Source: Christensenellaceae bacterium (GTDB taxonomy: Bacteria; Bacillota; Clostridia; Christensenellales; CAG-138). Taken from it: a DNA stretch of 64,000 nucleotides. Shown piece after piece: positions 1,873 to 63,737 of this stretch. Position 1 is the stretch's first letter. Each line of letters opens with the position of its first letter. The position numbers and the translations under genes are program-made. The notes under the pieces were generated by a model. It was not told where the DNA came from, searched no databases, and worked only from the letters and a program-made list of their open reading frames with translations. Location of the stretch: the NCBI GenBank assembly GCA_022510765.1, contig JAFLSU010000009.1, positions 4,594-68,593 on the forward strand, written 5' to 3'.

Positions 1873-2673
1873 ATGCCGAAAAGCAAGACTACAACCGTGC
1901 ATACCACGGCCTCACAGAGCACTGGTGCACAGAGTGCAGGCGCACAGAGTGCAGGCGCACAGAGTGCAGGCGCACAGTGTGCGCCTGCATATAGACGGAA
2001 GGCAAAACGAAAACGTTTTGCTGTAAAAAGAAAGCGTCCAAATGCAAAATCAAGTTGTTTTGCCGCAAAAACAAAGCGATGCAATGAGAGAAATAAACGT
2101 TCCACTGTCGGTTTTAAGCGGCGCATAGCTTTTATTGGCGGCGCTCTGATTATCGCTCTTATTGCGGTGATTCTACTGATGCGCCCCGTCGGACGAAAGG
2201 TATACCCGATACACTACGCCGAGGAAGTGTTCCATTATGCGACCGAATATGAGCTTGATCCCTGCCTTGTGTTTGCGGTGATAAAGGTCGAAAGCGATTT
2301 TACTCCCAACGCCGTATCCCGCGCGGGTGCGCAGGGATTGATGCAGATAATGCCCGATACCGCAGATTGGATCGCATGGCGGCAGGGTCGCGAGCATGAC
2401 GGCAGACGCATCCTCGAACCGGAATACAATATTGATATGGGGTGCTATCTGCTTAGCTATCTAATGGAGTACTATGGAGGCAATATCGACTATGCTCTTG
2501 CCGCCTATAACGCGGGCAAGGGCGCAGTGGACGGCTGGCTTGAAAGCAGTGAGTATTTCGACGGGTCGAAGCTCCGTATACCGTATGAGGAAACGGATAA
2601 TTATGTAAAGAAGGTAAATTTTGCTTACAAAAGCTATAAGGAATTGTACCATGAAGAATTCTGCGATAAATAA
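1873..2673 (+). CDS. lytic transglycosylase (SLT domain) with basic, repeat-containing N-terminal extension and TM anchor
   Basis: VIKVES, GAQGLMQIMP, ALAAYNAG motifs; GGGGAG RBS before ATG 1873. Confidence 0.88.
   Translation: MPKSKTTTVHTTASQSTGAQSAGAQSAGAQSAGAQCAPAYRRKAKRKRFAVKRKRPNAKSSCFAAKTKRCNERNKRSTVGFKRRIAFIGGALIIALIAVILLMRPVGRKVYPIHYAEEVFHYATEYELDPCLVFAVIKVESDFTPNAVSRAGAQGLMQIMPDTADWIAWRQGREHDGRRILEPEYNIDMGCYLLSYLMEYYGGNIDYALAAYNAGKGAVDGWLESSEYFDGSKLRIPYEETDNYVKKVNFAYKSYKELYHEEFCDK
1912..1986 (+). repeat. 15-bp in-frame tandem repeat (AQSAG), 3 exact + 2 degenerate units
   Basis: gcacagagtgcaggc at 1927, 1942, 1957; degenerate flanking units. Confidence 0.9.
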
Positions 2674-4267
2674 TTTACTGCGCACAGCTGCAATCATGCT
2701 AACGCTGTTTTCGCTCTTTTTGACAGCATGCGGCGGAAATACCACAGCCAACCCCGATGCAAGTGCGGAACCAACGGATATGCCCTCTGAAACGGCAATC
2801 CCGTCTCCCGCCTCGGGCGGAACGCTATCATTGCCCATGCCGGAAAACATTTCCGTAAACAATCCGGATTACAGTCCGCTGCTCGTGTACACCGAGGAGA
2901 TGCTTCAGTTGTTCTCACTCGTATACGATCCGCTCATTGCCGTGGATGAAAGCAATATGCTCGTTCCTTCCCTTGCGCAAAGCTGGACACAGGATCCGGA
3001 GAACGAAAACGCATGGCTTGTCACCCTGCGCAAGGAGGTAAGGTGGCATTCCGGAGAGCCGCTTACCGCTGACGACGTGGTGTATACATACAGCACCCTC
3101 TATATCCTCGGCAGCGAATCGTATTATGCGTCATCGTTAAACAATATCGAGAGAGTGGAAAAGGTTGATGATCTAACGCTGCGGTTCCATATGAATTCCG
3201 CAGGGTTGACTGCATTGTACGCGCTGAATTTTCCGGTAATCAAGGAAAACTCCGACAGGCTTGTCGGAACGGGCGCATATAAGGCAGGCTCCCTAAGCGA
3301 TGAAGTGATACGGCTCAATGTCAACAATGACTGGTGGGACAGGCCGCCCTATATCCAAACGATTGAATTCCTCGCAAGGCCTACAAACGATACCGCTCTT
3401 GCGTCCTACTCCGCAGGACAGCTCAATTTCGTGCCGACGGCACAGCTCGCCGTCGGAAAGTACAGTGAACCCGGCGTGACTGTAGTTAAGGATATGATGA
3501 CGCAGAACATGGAGGTGCTGCTCGTCAATCACCGCCGACTGGTTATGAATCAAACCAACTTGCGAAGGGCGATAATTCACGCGATCAATAGAAGCCAGAT
3601 CATTACTAATATATATATGAACAGGGCCCGTTCGAGCGATGTGCCGTTTCCGCCCGATTCATGGCTGTATGACAGCAACGCGACGCAGTTTAATTATAAT
3701 GTTCAGACTGCATCCACCCTCCTCGATGGCATGGGCTATGCATTGAACGGAGATGGAATGCGTTCCATCACGCTTACCCTGCTCACGAGCAGCACCACGG
3801 AGAACACCACTCGAGCTGAGGCCGCGCAGCTCATCGCATCGCAGCTTGAACAGGTGGGAATAACCGTAAATATCGTCACTGCGTCGCATACCTATGGCGA
3901 TACGCAGAGCGAATTCCTGCTCGCGCTGGAGGCGGGGGACTGGGATATAGCTCTCGCGGGCTTCAATCTCAACCAAAACAATGATCTTTCGCCATATCTT
4001 ACCCAGGACGGGAAGAATAATTATGGAAACTACCTCGGCGGAAGCATGAACAGGCTCATCGAGAACATGAGGGATGCTGCGGACGAGGAGAGCCTGCGCG
4101 AATGCGCAGACAAGTTTCAGCAGGCGTTTACTGAGGAACTGCCGTTCATAGTGCTGTATTTCAGGCTGAACAGCGTGGTCTATTCAGCCGATTTGAAGGG
4201 CGTGGATGTGATGCGCGAGCCGCTTTTGATGCGAAACATCAAAGGCTGGTACCTTCGCACGGAATAG
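2651..4267 (+). CDS. family 5 (peptide/nickel-type) ABC substrate-binding lipoprotein, no permease genes adjacent
   Basis: Lipobox LTAC; LVPSLAQSW, VRWHSGEPLTADDVVYT, LRRAIIHAINR motifs. Confidence 0.85.
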   Translation: MKNSAINNLLRTAAIMLTLFSLFLTACGGNTTANPDASAEPTDMPSETAIPSPASGGTLSLPMPENISVNNPDYSPLLVYTEEMLQLFSLVYDPLIAVDESNMLVPSLAQSWTQDPENENAWLVTLRKEVRWHSGEPLTADDVVYTYSTLYILGSESYYASSLNNIERVEKVDDLTLRFHMNSAGLTALYALNFPVIKENSDRLVGTGAYKAGSLSDEVIRLNVNNDWWDRPPYIQTIEFLARPTNDTALASYSAGQLNFVPTAQLAVGKYSEPGVTVVKDMMTQNMEVLLVNHRRLVMNQTNLRRAIIHAINRSQIITNIYMNRARSSDVPFPPDSWLYDSNATQFNYNVQTASTLLDGMGYALNGDGMRSITLTLLTSSTTENTTRAEAAQLIASQLEQVGITVNIVTASHTYGDTQSEFLLALEAGDWDIALAGFNLNQNNDLSPYLTQDGKNNYGNYLGGSMNRLIENMRDAADEESLRECADKFQQAFTEELPFIVLYFRLNSVVYSADLKGVDVMREPLLMRNIKGWYLRTE

Positions 4268-6747: not shown

Positions 6748-7506
6748 TCAGATGTCTATCTCGAGCCCGACGGGACAGTGGTCGCTGCCCGTAATAGAGG
6801 CGTATATTTTAGCCTCGAAAATTTTGCTTGCGATTCGATTGCTTACCACAAAGTAATCAATCCGCCATCCGGTATTCTTTTCACGTGCCTTGAACATATA
6901 GCTCCACCATGTGTATGCGTCGGTTTGATCGGGATAGAGATGACGAAAGCTGTCGGTAAAGCCTGAATCGAGCAACCGAGTAAACTTTTCGCGCTCCTCA
7001 TCAGTAAAACCTGCGTTGCCACGGTTCGACTTGGGGTTTTTTAAATCGATCTCCTTGTGGGCAACGTTTAGATCGCCGCAGAAAACGACGGGCTTTTTCG
7101 CGTCAAGCCCCATCAGGTATTCGCGGAAAGCGTTCTCCCAGCGGCAACGGAACTCAAGGCGGGTAAGCTCGCGCTGAGCGTTCGGAGTATAGACCGTCAC
7201 AAAATAAAAATCGGGAAATTCGAGCGTGATGACGCGTCCCTCGCCCTCGAATTCGGCATCCATGCCCATTCCGTAGGAGACGCAGAGCGGTTCTATCTTG
7301 GTAAACACGGCCGTGCCGGAATAGCCCTTCTTGTCCGCATAATGCCAATACGAATGATACCCATCGGGTGCAAAATCGATCTGCCCCTGCTGAAGCTTCG
7401 TCTCCTGTACGGCAAAGATGTCTGCGTTTTCCGCAGTGAAAAAATCGTTAAAGCCCTTGCCCATGCAGGCGCGTAGGCCGTTTACGTTCCATGAAATCAG
7501 TTTCAT
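6748..7506 (-). CDS. xth: exodeoxyribonuclease III
   Basis: MKLISWNVNGLRA, QETK, GDLNVAH, WRIDY, SDHCP motifs. Confidence 0.96.
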   Translation of the reverse strand: MKLISWNVNGLRACMGKGFNDFFTAENADIFAVQETKLQQGQIDFAPDGYHSYWHYADKKGYSGTAVFTKIEPLCVSYGMGMDAEFEGEGRVITLEFPDFYFVTVYTPNAQRELTRLEFRCRWENAFREYLMGLDAKKPVVFCGDLNVAHKEIDLKNPKSNRGNAGFTDEEREKFTRLLDSGFTDSFRHLYPDQTDAYTWWSYMFKAREKNTGWRIDYFVVSNRIASKIFEAKIYASITGSDHCPVGLEIDI

Positions 7507-9721: not shown

Positions 9722-10016
9722 ATATACCGTTAAGTTGTATGAACGTGCTTATCGTGATTTGAATGGGATATATGCACATATTTCGAAAATTCTTTTGTAG
9801 CCTGAAACGGCAGAAAGGATCGTGGATGTGCTGGAGAAAGCGATTTTAAGTCTGGAATCGTTTCCGGAGCGCGGTGCAGTTCGCCGTACAGGAATTTTCG
9901 CAAATCAGGGCTATCGTCAATTATTTGTGAAGAACTATATCATTATCTATCGTGTTCTGAAGGAGAAAAAAGAAGTGCGCGTTGTGACGATCAGCCATGC
10001 ACTTAGGCAATTCTAA
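9714..10016 (+). pseudogene. RelE/ParE family toxin with in-frame TAG at codon 29
   Basis: TTG 9714 overlaps antitoxin stop; KYTVKLYERAYRDLNGIYAHIS...LL*PETA...GYRQLFVKNYIIIYRV; TAG at 9798-9800. Confidence 0.8.
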
Positions 10017-12111: not shown

Positions 12112-12407
12112 TGAACGCATACGACATCATTATTAAGCCCGTTCTCACCGAAAAGAGCTACGAAGCGATATCCGAGAAGACCTATGTTTTCATCGTAGCC
12201 AAGAAGGCCGGCAAGACCGAGATCAAGCAGGCCATCGAGACGATCTTCGACGGCGTAAAGGTTGAAAGGGTCAACACCGTCAACCGCCTCGGCAAAGTAA
12301 AGAGGCAGGGCACCTCCCAGGGTCGCCGCCCCTCTACCAAGAAAGCCTATATCACCCTCACGAAGGATTCCAAGACCATCGAAGCCTTCGACAGCATGGC
12401 TCAGTAA
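12111..12407 (+). CDS. rplW: 50S ribosomal protein L23
   Basis: IIKPVLTEKS, KKAYITL. Confidence 0.97.
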   Translation: MNAYDIIIKPVLTEKSYEAISEKTYVFIVAKKAGKTEIKQAIETIFDGVKVERVNTVNRLGKVKRQGTSQGRRPSTKKAYITLTKDSKTIEAFDSMAQ

Positions 12408-58346: not shown

Positions 58347-58586
58347 TTGACTTATCGAGAACCTATGATATAATCAAATTGATAGTTCAAGGAGGTTCCC
58401 GTCGGGGATGTACATAGTTCGCTGAATTCATGAATAATGATGCCGTATTGTGCGGGCGGTCGGGCATTGCACCCGATCCTTTGTGCATTGCGGCGAAACG
58501 GCGAATGCGTCATACGGAACGGAAATAGGTCTTAGGGCTTTTAAAGCGGCTGTGAGGATGCTTCACGGTCGCTTTTCATATTTTTA
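58347..58586 (+). promoter_or_regulatory. promoter, uORF and terminator leader (ribosome-dependent attenuator) of the ABC-F gene
   Basis: TTGACT-N16-TATAAT; AAGGAGG; uORF MYIVR* 58408-25; 13-bp terminator 58543-86. Confidence 0.7.
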
Positions 58587-58604
58587 CAGATTTAGGAGGA
58601 AACT

Positions 58605-60080
58605 ATGGCACTTATAACGATAAAAAATTTGACCTTCCACTACGAGGGAAGCTACGATCATGTCTTTGAAAATGCGAGTTTTTCGATAGATACCGATTGG
58701 AAACTCGGCTTCATCGGTCGAAACGGCAGGGGTAAGACTACGCTTTTGAAACTACTCATGGGAAAATACCCGTACAGCGGCAGCATATCAAGCAGCGTGG
58801 AATTTGACTATTTCCCATTTGAGATAGAGGACGATACCGAGCTTGCCGTAGATATTGCCGAGCGTGTTTCGGGCGTGGATGAAAAATGGCGGCTGCTGCG
58901 CGAAATAAACCTGCTTGAAATGGATGAAAGCGTTTTGTACCGCCCATTTTGTACGCTCTCGGGCGGCGAAAAAACGAGGATATTGCTTGCGGCGTTGTTC
59001 CTCAAGGAGGGAAATTTTCTGTTGATAGACGAGCCTACAAACCATCTTGACATGGATGCAAGAAGGGCGGTGGCGAAATATTTGAACGGCAAACGTGGCT
59101 TTATACTCGTTTCGCACGACCGTGCCTTTCTCGATGAGTGCATCGACCATGTGCTTTCGATAAACCGAGCTACAATCGAGGTGATGAGGGGCAATTACTC
59201 ATCGTGGCAGCGCGAGAAGGACAGGAGGGATAACTACGAAATTTCCGAAAATGCAAGGCTTACTTCGGAAATCGAGCGGCTCAGGGAGGCTGCACGGCGC
59301 ACGGCCTCATGGTCTGACAGGCTCGAATCGACCAAGATCGGCAGCGGTGCGGGCGACAGGGGGTATATAGGCGCGAAGTCCGCAAAGATGATGCGGCATT
59401 CAAAGGCTCAGCAGAGCAGAATAAATCGCGAGATCGAAAAGAAGGAGGGGCTGCTCCATGATGTCGAATACGATGAAAAGCTCAAACTCCATCCCGAGGA
59501 GTATTTTAAGGAAACGCTCATTCACGCTTCCGAGCTTGCGCTCTATTATAATGAAAGGCAAATCTGCAATGGAATAGACTTTACGCTGAAGCGAGGGGAG
59601 CGAATCGCGCTCATCGGCTCCAATGGCTGCGGAAAATCGAGCGTGCTCAAGCTCATCCTGGGACAGGATATAGAATATACCGGCATTCTCAACATAGGTA
59701 GTAGGCTCAAAATCTCCTATGTGCCGCAGGATATGTCGTTTCTTAAGGGGAGCCTTGACGCATTCGCTAATGAATGCGAAATTGACATGACCCTGTTTAA
59801 GACCATATTGCGCAAGCTCGATTTCAAGCGCGTTCAGTTTGAAAAGGATATGGGCGAATTATCCATGGGGCAGAAGAAAAAAGTGTTGATAGCAAGGAGC
59901 CTTTGCGAACAAGCGCACCTGTATATTTGGGATGAACCGCTCAACTATGTCGATGTTATCTCACGCTTGCAGATTGAAGCATTGATACTCGAATACCGTC
60001 CGACGATGCTTTTTGTCGAGCATGACAGGGCGTTCGTTTCGGAAATCGCAACGCGCAGTATCGAGTTGCAAGGACGCTGA
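58605..60080 (+). CDS. lsa: Lsa-family ABC-F ribosomal protection protein
   Basis: FSIDTDWKLGFIGRNGRGKTT, LSGGEK, IDEPTNHLD, second NBD YIWDEPLNYVD; no TMs. Confidence 0.85.
   Translation: MALITIKNLTFHYEGSYDHVFENASFSIDTDWKLGFIGRNGRGKTTLLKLLMGKYPYSGSISSSVEFDYFPFEIEDDTELAVDIAERVSGVDEKWRLLREINLLEMDESVLYRPFCTLSGGEKTRILLAALFLKEGNFLLIDEPTNHLDMDARRAVAKYLNGKRGFILVSHDRAFLDECIDHVLSINRATIEVMRGNYSSWQREKDRRDNYEISENARLTSEIERLREAARRTASWSDRLESTKIGSGAGDRGYIGAKSAKMMRHSKAQQSRINREIEKKEGLLHDVEYDEKLKLHPEEYFKETLIHASELALYYNERQICNGIDFTLKRGERIALIGSNGCGKSSVLKLILGQDIEYTGILNIGSRLKISYVPQDMSFLKGSLDAFANECEIDMTLFKTILRKLDFKRVQFEKDMGELSMGQKKKVLIARSLCEQAHLYIWDEPLNYVDVISRLQIEALILEYRPTMLFVEHDRAFVSEIATRSIELQGR
59944..60068 (+). 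repeat. direct repeat copy 1 (functional lsa 3' end)
   Basis: Aligns without gaps to 62149-62273. Confidence 0.9.
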
Positions 60081-60159
60081 GGGGGGATTTTCCCCCTTTC
60101 CAATCCGCATTCTAATTCTTTTTATTGGTGAATAGTATAAGATAAACGTTTCTGTGGAG

Positions 60160-60197
60160 AAAAACGTTCAGCATCGCTGAATCCAGCGATGCTGAAC
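60160..60197 (-). terminator. terminator of the NACHT gene
   Basis: Perfect 14-bp stem GTTCAGCATCGCTG/CAGCGATGCTGAAC with T-tract on - strand. Confidence 0.8.
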
Positions 60198-60223
60198 TAA
60201 TAAAAGCATACAACTATAATTGC

Positions 60224-62065
60224 TTATAGCTCATCAATAAAATTATAACGTTTAAGAGATTCACTTTTTGCATCTATCTCGGAAAGCCAATCCGATATCT
60301 CCTGATATGCGTTGTCCAGTCCTAAGCAGCTAATAATCGCAGAATATAGGCGTTCACGTTCAGCTTCCGTGCAATCTGAGGTATCGATTTTGCTAAAATT
60401 AAGTATGTGCGAAATACTACTATGTACTGTCGCTTCGGCGTAACCACGAATAACATCTATGCTATCATTTTTAATAGCAAAGTTTCTCGACATAGAATGT
60501 ATTATGTCAATAAAAAATATTTCAACAATAAAGCTGTGCGGTTGAGGTATTATGCCTATCCGATCTTTTGACAAATACACTCCTGGACATAAGCTTTTTA
60601 GTATAAATTCATTTCTATTATTGCTGCGCGTTGCGGCTTCTACCAGTTTACGTAGATCATCCGCCAACGCATTTATAGCAAAACGCTCAGGTTCAATCTG
60701 TACCAATAAGGTATAATAGTCTCGTTTCCAATAAGCCTGTGGCATACTTAGAAGAGAGGAAAACAATTTCTTTTGCTGCTCATCCGTCAATACGTGAGCT
60801 GTATAATAAGCGGCAAAATAGGTTTGAAATGATCGATGAGAAAATCGGAACATGTCGCCATCTTTTATAATCATACAAACCGAATTACGCAAATCCGTAA
60901 GATAATCTTTATCTATGATTTCAAGGTTAAGTTTATTAATGCTATTTTGTAATCGTTTAAGAATGTCATCTTTAGTAAACTCATAGGCCTCATCCATATA
61001 AGAATGAAAGCAAAAATGAGCAAAAAGGCGCTTGAAGCTTTCCTCGTTCAGAGCCTTACAACGAAAATCACGCCTATAACTGCCTTTGTCAGTGCTATCG
61101 TGTATACTGTAAAGTGCATCAAATGCCTTTTGATAGAAATCGGAAAGGTGATCTGGTATGGACGAGTTACGCATAAATGTGAGAAACATCATGGAAAGCA
61201 ACAGTGGGTTTTCTGCAAAACTTTTATGAGTATCATAGAGAAATTCCTCAAGCTGACGACAAAACTCTTGTGCTTTTTCGTCTTCGGGGCGAATTTTTTC
61301 TGCCAACCGGACCGCTTGTTCCTTTCGGAGAGTCATAGGCTCCATGGTGGTATAGGTCTCAAGCGGGGAAAACCCTTCGTACGGCCGTGAAGTAATGATA
61401 CAGGGATTTTTGGGATATTTCGCGCTAAATTTCTGAAGTGCTTCAGCCGTTTCAGCAGATAACGAAGTATTGACCTCATCCAGCCCATCAAACAAAAACA
61501 GATATTTTCCTGATACAAGGCTATATTCAAACTGCTCCCTCGGTAACTTCACATTAAAATCTTCCATACAGGTATAAATCAGCTCCAGAATTGATAGCTG
61601 ATCCGAGGGTTGCTTGTTTATACGTCGAAGCTCGACCAATACCGGAACATGCTCCCCAAGTTCGGCAGTTACAAGAAACAGATAACGCATGAGCATAGAT
61701 TTGCCTATGCCACCGGTACCGACAATCAGGATATTCTTGCTGATGTTCAGCATAGGCTCAACTGTCGAGGTGTCAATTTCTTGATTCTCGTATGATAGAC
61801 CAATATTGACATAAATGCTGTCAGGGCCAATTATTTCCCTAGAAGTTTGACCCGTGGCAAGCGTCTTAACTTTATTATATCGTTCAGTCGCATTTTTTAA
61901 ATAACGTTGAAAAACTGTTCCAAGCTCAATCTTGGCTTTACCATATTTGTCCTTTACAAAATCTACAATTGCACCTAATGCGCGGTCTACAACGCTTGCT
62001 CCAACTTTTTGCGCACCGCTGACCATTGCAGCACCTAATAGAGAGGTGTTATCAGATTCATCCAT
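60224..62065 (-). CDS. NACHT (STAND) NTPase, putative anti-phage protein
   Basis: Walker A GTGGIGKS, Walker B LFLFDGLDE, IITSRP, NPLLLSM, FSHRSFQTYFAA; AT-rich; GGAGG RBS before MDESD. Confidence 0.9.
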   Translation of the reverse strand: MDESDNTSLLGAAMVSGAQKVGASVVDRALGAIVDFVKDKYGKAKIELGTVFQRYLKNATERYNKVKTLATGQTSREIIGPDSIYVNIGLSYENQEIDTSTVEPMLNISKNILIVGTGGIGKSMLMRYLFLVTAELGEHVPVLVELRRINKQPSDQLSILELIYTCMEDFNVKLPREQFEYSLVSGKYLFLFDGLDEVNTSLSAETAEALQKFSAKYPKNPCIITSRPYEGFSPLETYTTMEPMTLRKEQAVRLAEKIRPEDEKAQEFCRQLEEFLYDTHKSFAENPLLLSMMFLTFMRNSSIPDHLSDFYQKAFDALYSIHDSTDKGSYRRDFRCKALNEESFKRLFAHFCFHSYMDEAYEFTKDDILKRLQNSINKLNLEIIDKDYLTDLRNSVCMIIKDGDMFRFSHRSFQTYFAAYYTAHVLTDEQQKKLFSSLLSMPQAYWKRDYYTLLVQIEPERFAINALADDLRKLVEAATRSNNRNEFILKSLCPGVYLSKDRIGIIPQPHSFIVEIFFIDIIHSMSRNFAIKNDSIDVIRGYAEATVHSSISHILNFSKIDTSDCTEAERERLYSAIISCLGLDNAYQEISDWLSEIDAKSESLKRYNFIDEL

Positions 62066-62148
62066 TTTACAATCCTCCATGTTTTTCCATATCGTATCAA
62101 AATTCGAGGAATTATGCAAGGGTTAATTGAGTGGTTTTCTTCAAAACT

Positions 62149-62285
62149 ACTATGTCGATGTGATTTCCCGCTTGTAGATTGAAGCCTTGATACTCGAATA
62201 CCGCCCGACGATGCTGTTCGTCGAGCATGATAGATTATTCGTTTCGAAGATAGCAACGCGCAGAATTGAGCTGAGCGAAACACGG
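62149..62285 (+). pseudogene. displaced second lsa 3' end (direct repeat copy 2) with CAG>TAG nonsense change
   Basis: YVDVISRL*IEALILEYRPTMLFVEHDRLFVSKIATRRIELSETR*. Confidence 0.85.
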
Positions 62286-62346
62286 TAAATGCCTTAGATT
62301 TGGGATTCAACCACTTATATTCGACGTTAAAAGCTGTTTTTCGCAC

Positions 62347-62375
62347 TTGACAGGTGAATCTATGCTGTGTACAAT
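62347..62375 (+). promoter_or_regulatory. sigmaA promoter of the rib operon
   Basis: TTGACA-N17-TACAAT with TG extension. Confidence 0.8.
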
Positions 62376-62382
62376 GTACTTG

Positions 62383-62500
62383 AATATCTTCGGGGCGGGG
62401 TGCGATTCCCCACCGGCGGTAAAGCCCGCGAGCAATCAACTTTGATTCGCAGATCTGGTGAAATTCCGGAGCCGACAGTATAGTCTGGATGAAAGAAGAT
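62383..62500 (+). ncRNA. FMN riboswitch (RFN element)
   Basis: TATCTTCGGGGCGGGGTGCGATTCCCCACCGGCGGTAAAGCCCGCGAGC...AGATCTGGTGAAATTCCGGAGCCGACAGTATAGTCTGGATGAAAGAAG. Confidence 0.97.
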
Positions 62501-62520
62501 GGCATCTTTTTGAGATAATG

Positions 62521-62555
62521 CCCTGAAATGAGAGATCGTTTCAGGGATTTTTTGG
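62521..62555 (+). terminator. riboswitch expression-platform terminator
   Basis: CCCTGAAAT...GTTTCAGGG followed by ATTTTTT. Confidence 0.75.
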
Positions 62556-62618
62556 ATGCAAATGCCCTGTGGAGTATTTCCGCAGGGTATTTTGTTGTTA
62601 AATAGGAAGGAACGGAGT

Positions 62619-63737
62619 ATGCAGAACGATTCGGATTATATGCGCCGTGCGATCGCCTTGGCAAGGCAGGGTGTCGGTTGGACATCGCCCAATCCCATGG
62701 TCGGTGCAGTAATTGTAAAAAACGGCAGGGTCATCGGAGAAGGCTATCATAAAAAATGCGGGGAACCCCATGCGGAAAGGAATGCTCTTGCGTCCCTCAC
62801 GGAATCGGCGCAGGGGGCAACGATGTATGTAACGCTCGAACCCTGCTGTCACCACGGCAGAACGCCGCCATGCACCGAGGCCATCGCCCAACATGGGATA
62901 AGCCGGGTGGTCATCGGCTCAAGGGATCCGAATCCGCTGGTCGCCGGCAAGGGCGTGAGTTTTCTTAGGCAGCAGGGCATAATTGTGGAGGAGGACTTTC
63001 TAAAGACCGAATGTGACGCGCTTAATCCCGTGTTTTTTCACTACATCACCACAGGTTACTCCTATGTCGTCATGAAATACGCGATGACGCTGGATGGGAA
63101 GATTGCAACGCATTTGGGAAAATCAAAGTGGATAACAGGGGAGACAGCCAGGCAGCATGTGCATCAGCTTCGAGGTCATTACAGTGCCATTCTCGTGGGT
63201 ATCGGGACGGTTCTCGCGGACGATCCCATGCTGAACTGTCGAATTCCAGGCGGGCATCAGCCCGTGCGGATCGTTGCCGACAGCCATCTGCGGCTTCCGC
63301 TTCATAGCAGGTTGGCGCAGAGCGCAGGGGAATTCCGAACCATCGTGGCATGTGCGGAAAACGACCCTGCGAAAGCTGCAGCATTGCGCTCGGCAGGAAT
63401 CGAGGTGCTGCATATTCCGGGTTCGGATGGAAGAGTTGATCTTATGGAATTGATTGAATATCTCGGCAGGGAGCGGTTGGACAGCGTTCTAATCGAGGGC
63501 GGCGGACAGCTCCATGAAGCTGCGCTGCGGGCAGGTATAGTAAACCATGTCTGCGCATACATCGCACCAAAGCTCTTTGGCGGAGCCGAGGCTAAAACGC
63601 CCGTGGAGGGGAAGGGAGTAAATCTGCCTGACGAGGGTGCGAAGCTAAACAATATGCGTTTGACGCAGTTGGGTGAGGATATTTTACTTGAATACGATGT
63701 GAAGGAGGGCATGAACGGTGTTTACTGGAATCATTGA
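62619..63737 (+). CDS. ribD: riboflavin biosynthesis deaminase/reductase RibD
   Basis: SPNPMVGAV, HAERNA, TLEPCCHHGRTPPC, AMTLDGKIA, IEGGGQL. Confidence 0.97.
   Translation: MQNDSDYMRRAIALARQGVGWTSPNPMVGAVIVKNGRVIGEGYHKKCGEPHAERNALASLTESAQGATMYVTLEPCCHHGRTPPCTEAIAQHGISRVVIGSRDPNPLVAGKGVSFLRQQGIIVEEDFLKTECDALNPVFFHYITTGYSYVVMKYAMTLDGKIATHLGKSKWITGETARQHVHQLRGHYSAILVGIGTVLADDPMLNCRIPGGHQPVRIVADSHLRLPLHSRLAQSAGEFRTIVACAENDPAKAAALRSAGIEVLHIPGSDGRVDLMELIEYLGRERLDSVLIEGGGQLHEAALRAGIVNHVCAYIAPKLFGGAEAKTPVEGKGVNLPDEGAKLNNMRLTQLGEDILLEYDVKEGMNGVYWNH

Follow-up and report, generated by a model that had tools for sequence, protein, structure and literature searches.

When a circle that carries a 3′ gene fragment integrates by a single, Campbell-type crossover, the insert comes to lie inside a direct repeat and the target gene is kept whole; such integration is known mainly from laboratory suicide vectors. 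Related footprints have been described in natural settings. In Escherichia coli, e14 (and phage 21) occupies the 3′ end of icd, where, in the account given in the passage of PMC13626634 that cites Hill, Gray and Brody (1989), the insert provides another 3′ end, most of whose differences are synonymous, and the native fragment is displaced as the icdC pseudogene. Cis-mobilizable elements (CIMEs) and tandem accretion at gene 3′ ends are reported from Firmicutes (PMC5704250). Restriction–modification units can insert with long target duplication, leaving repeats of 30 to over 400 bp, often over a gene 3′ end, with no mobility gene and with empty sites in relatives (Nobusato 2000; Furuta 2010, PMC2853133), and PMC2853133 offers the closest published account of defense genes inserting without an integrase. 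Here, we analyzed a 64,000-nt stretch from the genome of an uncultured gut Christensenellaceae bacterium (assembly GCA_022510765.1, contig JAFLSU010000009.1, positions 4,594 to 68,593 of the forward strand; hereafter, the window), in which a cassette with a single NACHT-type STAND NTPase gene lies between two diverged copies of the 3′ end of lsa, an antibiotic resistance (ARE)-type ABC-F gene. With its new target and new cargo, the locus extends to Clostridia the footprint known from e14/icd, CIMEs and restriction–modification insertions. Its substitution pattern shows that a defense-type gene can arrive together with a substitute end for its target gene, leaving a resistance-type ABC-F gene working.

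The lsa gene encodes 491 aa with two Pfam ABC_tran domains (58605..60080, + strand). Its last 45 codons form copy A (59944..60068, +), the functional and cassette-linked 3′ end, which is followed by the residues QGR and a TGA stop at 60078–60080. Copy B (62149..62288, +), the displaced native 3′ end, is a relic that carries a TAG at 62175–62177 and a tail of its own, SETR, before a TAA at 62286–62288. The two copies align without gaps as a 125-bp direct repeat (59944–60068 versus 62149–62273, offset 2205) with 106/125 identical bases (84.8%). Blastn against the whole 1.87-Mb assembly returned the pair at E = 3 × 10−33, identified copy B as the sole other lsa-like piece in the genome and gave no second lsa fragment or 5′ stump elsewhere; a repeat search recovered the same pair. 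Read in frame with lsa, the copies differ at 16 codons, 12 of them synonymously, three by missense changes (A>L, E>K and S>R) and one by the CAG>TAG change of the downstream copy. The original prediction, made from the sequence of the window, had given the same repeat coordinates, the same ungapped length of ~125 bp and the same codon-difference counts, all of which were reproduced exactly. Both copies open with ACTATGTCGATG (59944–59955 and 62149–62160); this shared 12-mer is no longer than other identical runs in the repeat (up to 17 nt) and nothing marks a crossover core. Beyond codon 488, the tails are unrelated: A runs through QGR-stop into a G6/C5 hairpin, and B ends as SETR-stop without a hairpin. 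Both look like natural gene ends, and the terminus of A (...IELQGR) resembles the natural ends of homologues (...ELPG and ...ELLG).

The block between the copies is compact. Directly at the lsa stop, a hairpin with a short T tract (60079..60099, +; GGGGGGA-UUU-UCCCCC, −13.7 kcal/mol) was missed by the terminator scan. It is followed by the intrinsic terminator of the NACHT gene (60166..60197, − strand), a perfect 14-bp stem with GTTTTT behind it (−26 kcal/mol, z = −8.6). The NACHT gene itself (60224..62065, −) encodes 613 aa with a Pfam NACHT match at 2.7 × 10−10, starts with ATG at 62065 and has GGAGGA in front. Its promoter, TTGCAT-N17-TACGAT (62092..62119, −), belongs to a sequence block kept upstream of two homologues of 62–65% protein identity (loci L026 and L028). 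The block is tightly bounded, with only 29 nt between the −35 box and copy B, and it is AT-richer than its surroundings (GC 35–45% versus about 46–56% in the flanks). NACHT is its only open reading frame (ORF), and no recombinase gene is present in it. The layout recalls e14 in icd in that lsa runs into an insert with an allelic alternative 3′ end and the native fragment, copy B, sits at the far end. Unlike e14, a 15-kb element with an integrase and an excisionase of its own that leaves the chromosome on SOS induction, the present insert measures 2.2 kb, holds one cargo gene, targets an ABC-F gene and has neither a recombinase nor evidence of excision.

Whether the gene-proximal copy is a replacement tail or the product of a target duplication could be separated by an allele test. 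Nei–Gojobori estimates between A and B gave a synonymous divergence (dS) of 0.82 and a nonsynonymous divergence (dN) of 0.055, corresponding to an ω of 0.07. We simulated duplication in situ from an identical start, with the working copy accepting synonymous changes only, the far copy accepting any change and each run stopping at 19 differences. The simulated mean was 11.8 nonsynonymous changes versus the observed 5/19, and five or fewer arose in 0.025% of runs, which rejects a model of copies identical at birth followed by decay of the far one (P = 0.00025). The dS between A and B is three times the whole-lsa value (0.27) between this genome and L037, a 4.3-kb Logan contig with a 97% identical variant of the lsa protein; the tails are, therefore, alleles older than the split of the two lineages. 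At the same time, A and B are mutually nearest, sharing 38/41 aa compared with at most 32 for any other lsa among the 120 best homologues, and the donor was thus a near relative. Judged by these substitution patterns, copies A and B are coding lsa ends from two related, different alleles, as the original prediction had held, and its view of the block as a compact foreign cassette that supplies a replacement lsa end stands as well, with the cassette-proximal tail, copy A, having arrived together with the cassette.

The same data bear on insertion with long target duplication, in which 125 bp of lsa would have been duplicated on entry of the cassette and would then have diverged in place. Outwardly, the locus follows the pattern of PMC2853133: a defense-type gene lies between direct repeats longer than 30 bp over a gene 3′ end, with no mobility gene and no other mobile element at lsa. 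In the restriction–modification cases, the repeats are near-identical and derive from one target copy, whereas the substitution pattern here points to two alleles. The low ω, the deficit of nonsynonymous changes relative to the simulation, a dS between the copies three times that between lineages and the unrelated, natural-looking tails after codon 488 all speak against this explanation, which we regard as highly improbable. Empty sites, a feature of the restriction–modification insertions, were not found for lsa–rib in our clade sample of three contigs and are present for one sibling cassette (L068, described below).

Within this sample, the exact lsa protein occurs on one other contig only, which is identical over 11.4 kb and has the same layout. 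L037 is collinear with the window and 93.3% identical from the lsa promoter to the rib leader, with both tails and the NACHT gene present. Because L037 shares the insertion, the event is older than the 7% DNA split. The far tail of L037 has no TAG and has instead lost its stop codon, and its NACHT gene (2069–3910) bears a single Q>stop change. The relic decays independently in each lineage, which bears out the earlier suggestion that the downstream copy is decaying, and the insertion is best read as old and fixed across the three contigs at hand. RibD relatives do not exceed 84% identity; in the two that were looked up (79–80%), other genes, and no lsa, precede rib. The A-type and B-type tail peptides gave 0 matches each in the species-representative genome collection and JGI metagenomes.

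Alignment to L037 yielded further observations on lsa and its surroundings. Across 58605–60080, identity swings from 87% to 99% per 150 nt, which suggests recombination mosaicism within the gene. At repeat sites 13 and 37 (59957 and 59981 in copy A, 62162 and 62186 in copy B), both third-codon positions, copy A of the window equals copy B of L037 and copy A of L037 equals copy B of the window. This criss-cross pattern may reflect an exchange among copies or alleles; site 19, situated between the two, rules out a simple segment swap. The gene upstream of the lsa promoter in L037 (1–161) differs from the 820-aa membrane protein gene of the window, and its N terminus suggests a putative ISAs1-type transposase.

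On balance, the locus probably records an old, now fixed event in which a small circular cassette was inserted by a single (Campbell-type) crossover. When a circle and a chromosome recombine in this way, a target repeat is left round the insert and its gene-proximal copy is the foreign one; as in Campbell-type integration, a direct repeat of a homologous segment flanks the insert while lsa stays whole. The incoming circle would have consisted of the promoter–NACHT–terminator unit, the terminator hairpin and the final ~135 bp of an lsa allele of foreign origin. The crossover with the resident gene may have fallen where the shared segment begins, at its 5′ edge or close to it, in the D-loop (LNYVD) codons after Walker B. 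The resident gene would since have ended in the imported tail, copy A, and its native tail, copy B, would have been pushed 2.2 kb downstream to a position before the rib leader, where it decays. With no recombinase in the cassette, the crossover would have fallen either to homologous recombination of the host or to an integrase that worked in trans or has since been lost, which would be a CIME-like state. As for the comparison to CIMEs, the lsa insert has bounding repeats, which may or may not work as attachment (att) sites, and lacks mobility genes; the locus differs in having no known cognate integrase element or att function and in repeats that are only 85% identical. The original prediction had spoken of integration without an integrase: none is encoded in the cassette now, and that part holds, whereas integrase-free entry is not demonstrated as the mechanism.

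Several results weigh against a circle that entered by single crossover. The longest identical run within the repeat is 17 nt, which makes it a poor RecA substrate. Apart from the absence of an integrase from the cassette, the 78.9-kb contig gave no match to PF00589 (tyrosine integrase), in a search that did not extend to serine recombinases or transposases. Phage records, IMG/VR and about 800 genomes yielded no element that combines an integrase with an lsa fragment. Across the three clade contigs, we found neither an empty site nor alternative cargo, and no circle is known for this locus; as far as these contigs reach, the duplication is fixed, an outcome that the original prediction had named as counting against it. 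NACHT cassettes elsewhere use unrelated targets, so no single integrase specificity explains all of them, and the support that other NACHT loci may lend is by analogy. To our knowledge, no natural circular NACHT cassette has been observed.

Some of the evidence would also suit an origin without any circle or att site. A linear fragment with a whole or partial A-type lsa and the NACHT gene could have recombined homologously at its left end and been joined illegitimately at its right end inside a resident B-type lsa; alternatively, two lsa genes could have been stacked, after which the second lost its 5′ 1.3 kb. Copy B would then be a deletion stump. Consistent with this are a 4-nt microhomology, AACT, at the 62148/62149 junction, the mosaic identity of lsa relative to L037, by which recombination in lsa does occur, and fluid synteny, with a different upstream neighbor in L037 and sister species without lsa before rib. 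An orphan lsa tail without an intact gene in another genome (G437) points the same way. Homology-facilitated illegitimate recombination normally deletes recipient DNA and leaves no direct repeat, and neither linear import nor stacking explains why same-polarity direct repeats recur round NACHT homologues at unrelated loci or why the right boundary lies only 29 nt from the promoter. We consider such an origin unlikely.

The broader claim of the original prediction, that of a resistance gene as a hotspot where defense cargo integrates, did not extend beyond this locus. A search with a 46-residue lsa tail, run on 401 genomes each from the order and the class, identified lsa-type tails in 121 and 60 genomes, respectively. 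Two tails on one contig occurred only in the present genome; a second tail is absent from about 180 other lsa-bearing species sampled in order and class. Apparent doublets and short frames were followed up in six genomes, with a few others left out. The case of G489 is a 119-nt contig overlap, those of G528 and G395 are frame-broken genes, G065 holds a truncated C-terminal half, the fragment of G476 is cut by a contig end and G437 has a lone orphan fragment without duplication. All lsa-like tails in IMG/VR lie within full-length genes. Matches in phage records are at most 63% identical, and the annotated ones fall in ABC-F genes, with the remainder not inspected. A role of lsa as a landing pad is, thus, not supported beyond the single event described here. 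The orphan fragment of G437 (contig C4; L085, 5988–7497) covers residues 414–488 at 61% identity and lies right behind a DUF6036/AbiEii-like nucleotidyltransferase pair; intact lsa was not detected in that genome.

A different picture emerged from the cargo. We sought bracketing direct repeats in 29 NACHT homologue loci and identified them at L026 (58 bp, 84% identity, spacing 2130), L068 (42 bp, 86% identity, spacing 2067) and L028 (96 bp, 86% identity, spacing 2795); besides the window and these loci, there were three looser cases. With 600-bp flanks, repeats occurred at 2/25 homologue loci versus 1/590 shifted control positions in the same loci. NACHT relatives, thus, recur in integrase-less modules of 2.1–2.8 kb between diverged repeats of a neighbor's 3′ region. 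Polarity is alike in the window, L026 and L068, with the relic before the NACHT promoter and the working copy beside the convergent target gene. No terminal inverted repeats or conserved end motif were found in the NACHT cassettes, and no variant contig offered an empty site for the L026 cassette.

At L028, the repeat holds a stretch resembling a tRNA 3′ end, GGTTCGAGTCCCGTCTCGCGCC, and is present in three att-like copies (7095–7190, 9890–9985 and 12322–12351). They separate an element with tyrosine integrase, Rep and FtsK, the NACHT module and a YhcG/DUF4258 module, and GTAGACA arm repeats are present. The 17.9 kb retrieved for this locus contain no tRNA gene. Placing a NACHT module beside an integrase/Rep/FtsK element, L028 matches the tandem-accretion setting of CIMEs; an integrase element next to bounding repeats is known only for this homologue, at its tRNA-like site.

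At L068 (7832–9940), NACHT and gpmI are convergent, and the repeat corresponds to the distal half of the gpmI terminator hairpin. In a sister species (G817), whose gpmI is 98% identical, gpmI and its terminator are followed by the next gene with no NACHT present, which makes this an empty site, and the far copy of L068 is closer to the empty-site sequence than is the gene-proximal copy. In two other species (L092 and L093), a 0.8-kb unit encoding a helix-turn-helix (XRE) protein and a protein of 87–92 aa lies between two full copies of the gpmI hairpin. The gpmI terminator of an Acutalibacteraceae genus is, thus, a small hotspot. An interpretation of the hairpin as a genome-wide repeat was rejected, as it is confined to this locus in those genomes. 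The empty-site species also has an insert of ~190 nt with terminal inverted repeats at gpmI (L091, 3000–3480).

By analogy, the sibling cassettes hint at single-gene units that may spread without a recombinase of their own. Spread of this kind would bear on the growth of defense islands; that lsa attracts cargo is a separate matter and not shown. Solo-NACHT cassettes recurring between surrogate gene ends are, in our view, the lead worth following. We tentatively suggest that short NACHT genes of gut Clostridia might travel as minimal, recombinase-less cassettes of 2.1–2.8 kb, each with a surrogate 3′ end or terminator of its target that could serve as both address and repair patch, through a borrowed integrase or host recombination. 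In that general scheme, which we hold to be possible and rather doubtful, the lsa case would be an old, frozen landing. A still stronger variant is that the solo-NACHT cassette remains mobile today, with the gene tail acting as a RecA homology address or with an integrase borrowed, and that lsa is one landing site among others. The minimal modules of 2067, 2130 and 2205 bp at different targets fit a cassette on the move, as do the empty site and alternative cargo at the gpmI terminator of related species and the many NACHT homologues on contigs of about 2.1–2.5 kb. The insertion at lsa is common to lineages 7% apart in DNA, its relic is decaying and the L037 NACHT gene itself bears a stop. Together with the absence of a second tail from the other lsa-bearing species and of any near-identical cassette elsewhere (outside the clade, NACHT relatives reach 65% identity at best), these points make present mobility distinctly unlikely, even more so than linear import.

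The NACHT protein was modeled with AlphaFold2 at a predicted local distance difference test (pLDDT) score of 81, and its best folds were NLRC4, NOD2 and NLRP3; Foldseek matched it to NLRC4 and NOD2 at E = 10−10. Its family, with 769 homologues, is large in gut Clostridia. We considered whether the protein might be its own recombinase or nuclease and rejected this, as the fold is a plain NACHT fold and no such fold was among the best matches, for which the end domains were not searched separately. Homologues adjoin Wadjet together with a serine recombinase or an element with tyrosine integrase, Rep and FtsK. The protein shares with the bNACHT antiphage proteins (bioRxiv 10.1101/2022.07.19.500537) a central NACHT NTPase module with an NLRC4/NOD2/NLRP3-like fold, and the proximity of its homologues to Wadjet and their mobile-element contexts extend the likeness. 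It differs in being short (613 aa), in matching no PADLOC model and in lacking a recognizable effector or repeat sensor domain; its role in defense is putative.

Toward the end of the window, the genes and features follow in the order 820-aa membrane protein gene (−), lsa, NACHT (−), copy B, rib leader and ribD. The right flank, outside the insertion, contains the rib promoter (62347–62375, +) and a flavin mononucleotide (FMN) riboswitch (62382–62504, +; RF00050, 119 bits), and homology with the sister species begins there at ~62365. The ABC-F protein scores 479.5 bits against the NCBIfam model ribo_prot_ABC_F, above its cutoff of 380, and 703.7 bits against ABCF_Lsa_all (NF000167), under the curated cutoff of 750. 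Upstream of lsa (58347–58604), a strong promoter, TTGACT-N16-TG-TATAAT, and a leader with a terminator hairpin at 58543–58575 form an arrangement that fits the attenuation control of ARE ABC-F genes. Lastly, the gene caller predicted a 216-aa ORF on the minus strand (62035–62685) that crosses copy B, the rib promoter and the FMN riboswitch. This ORF is very likely spurious, and its calling pushed the annotated start of ribD to 62697.

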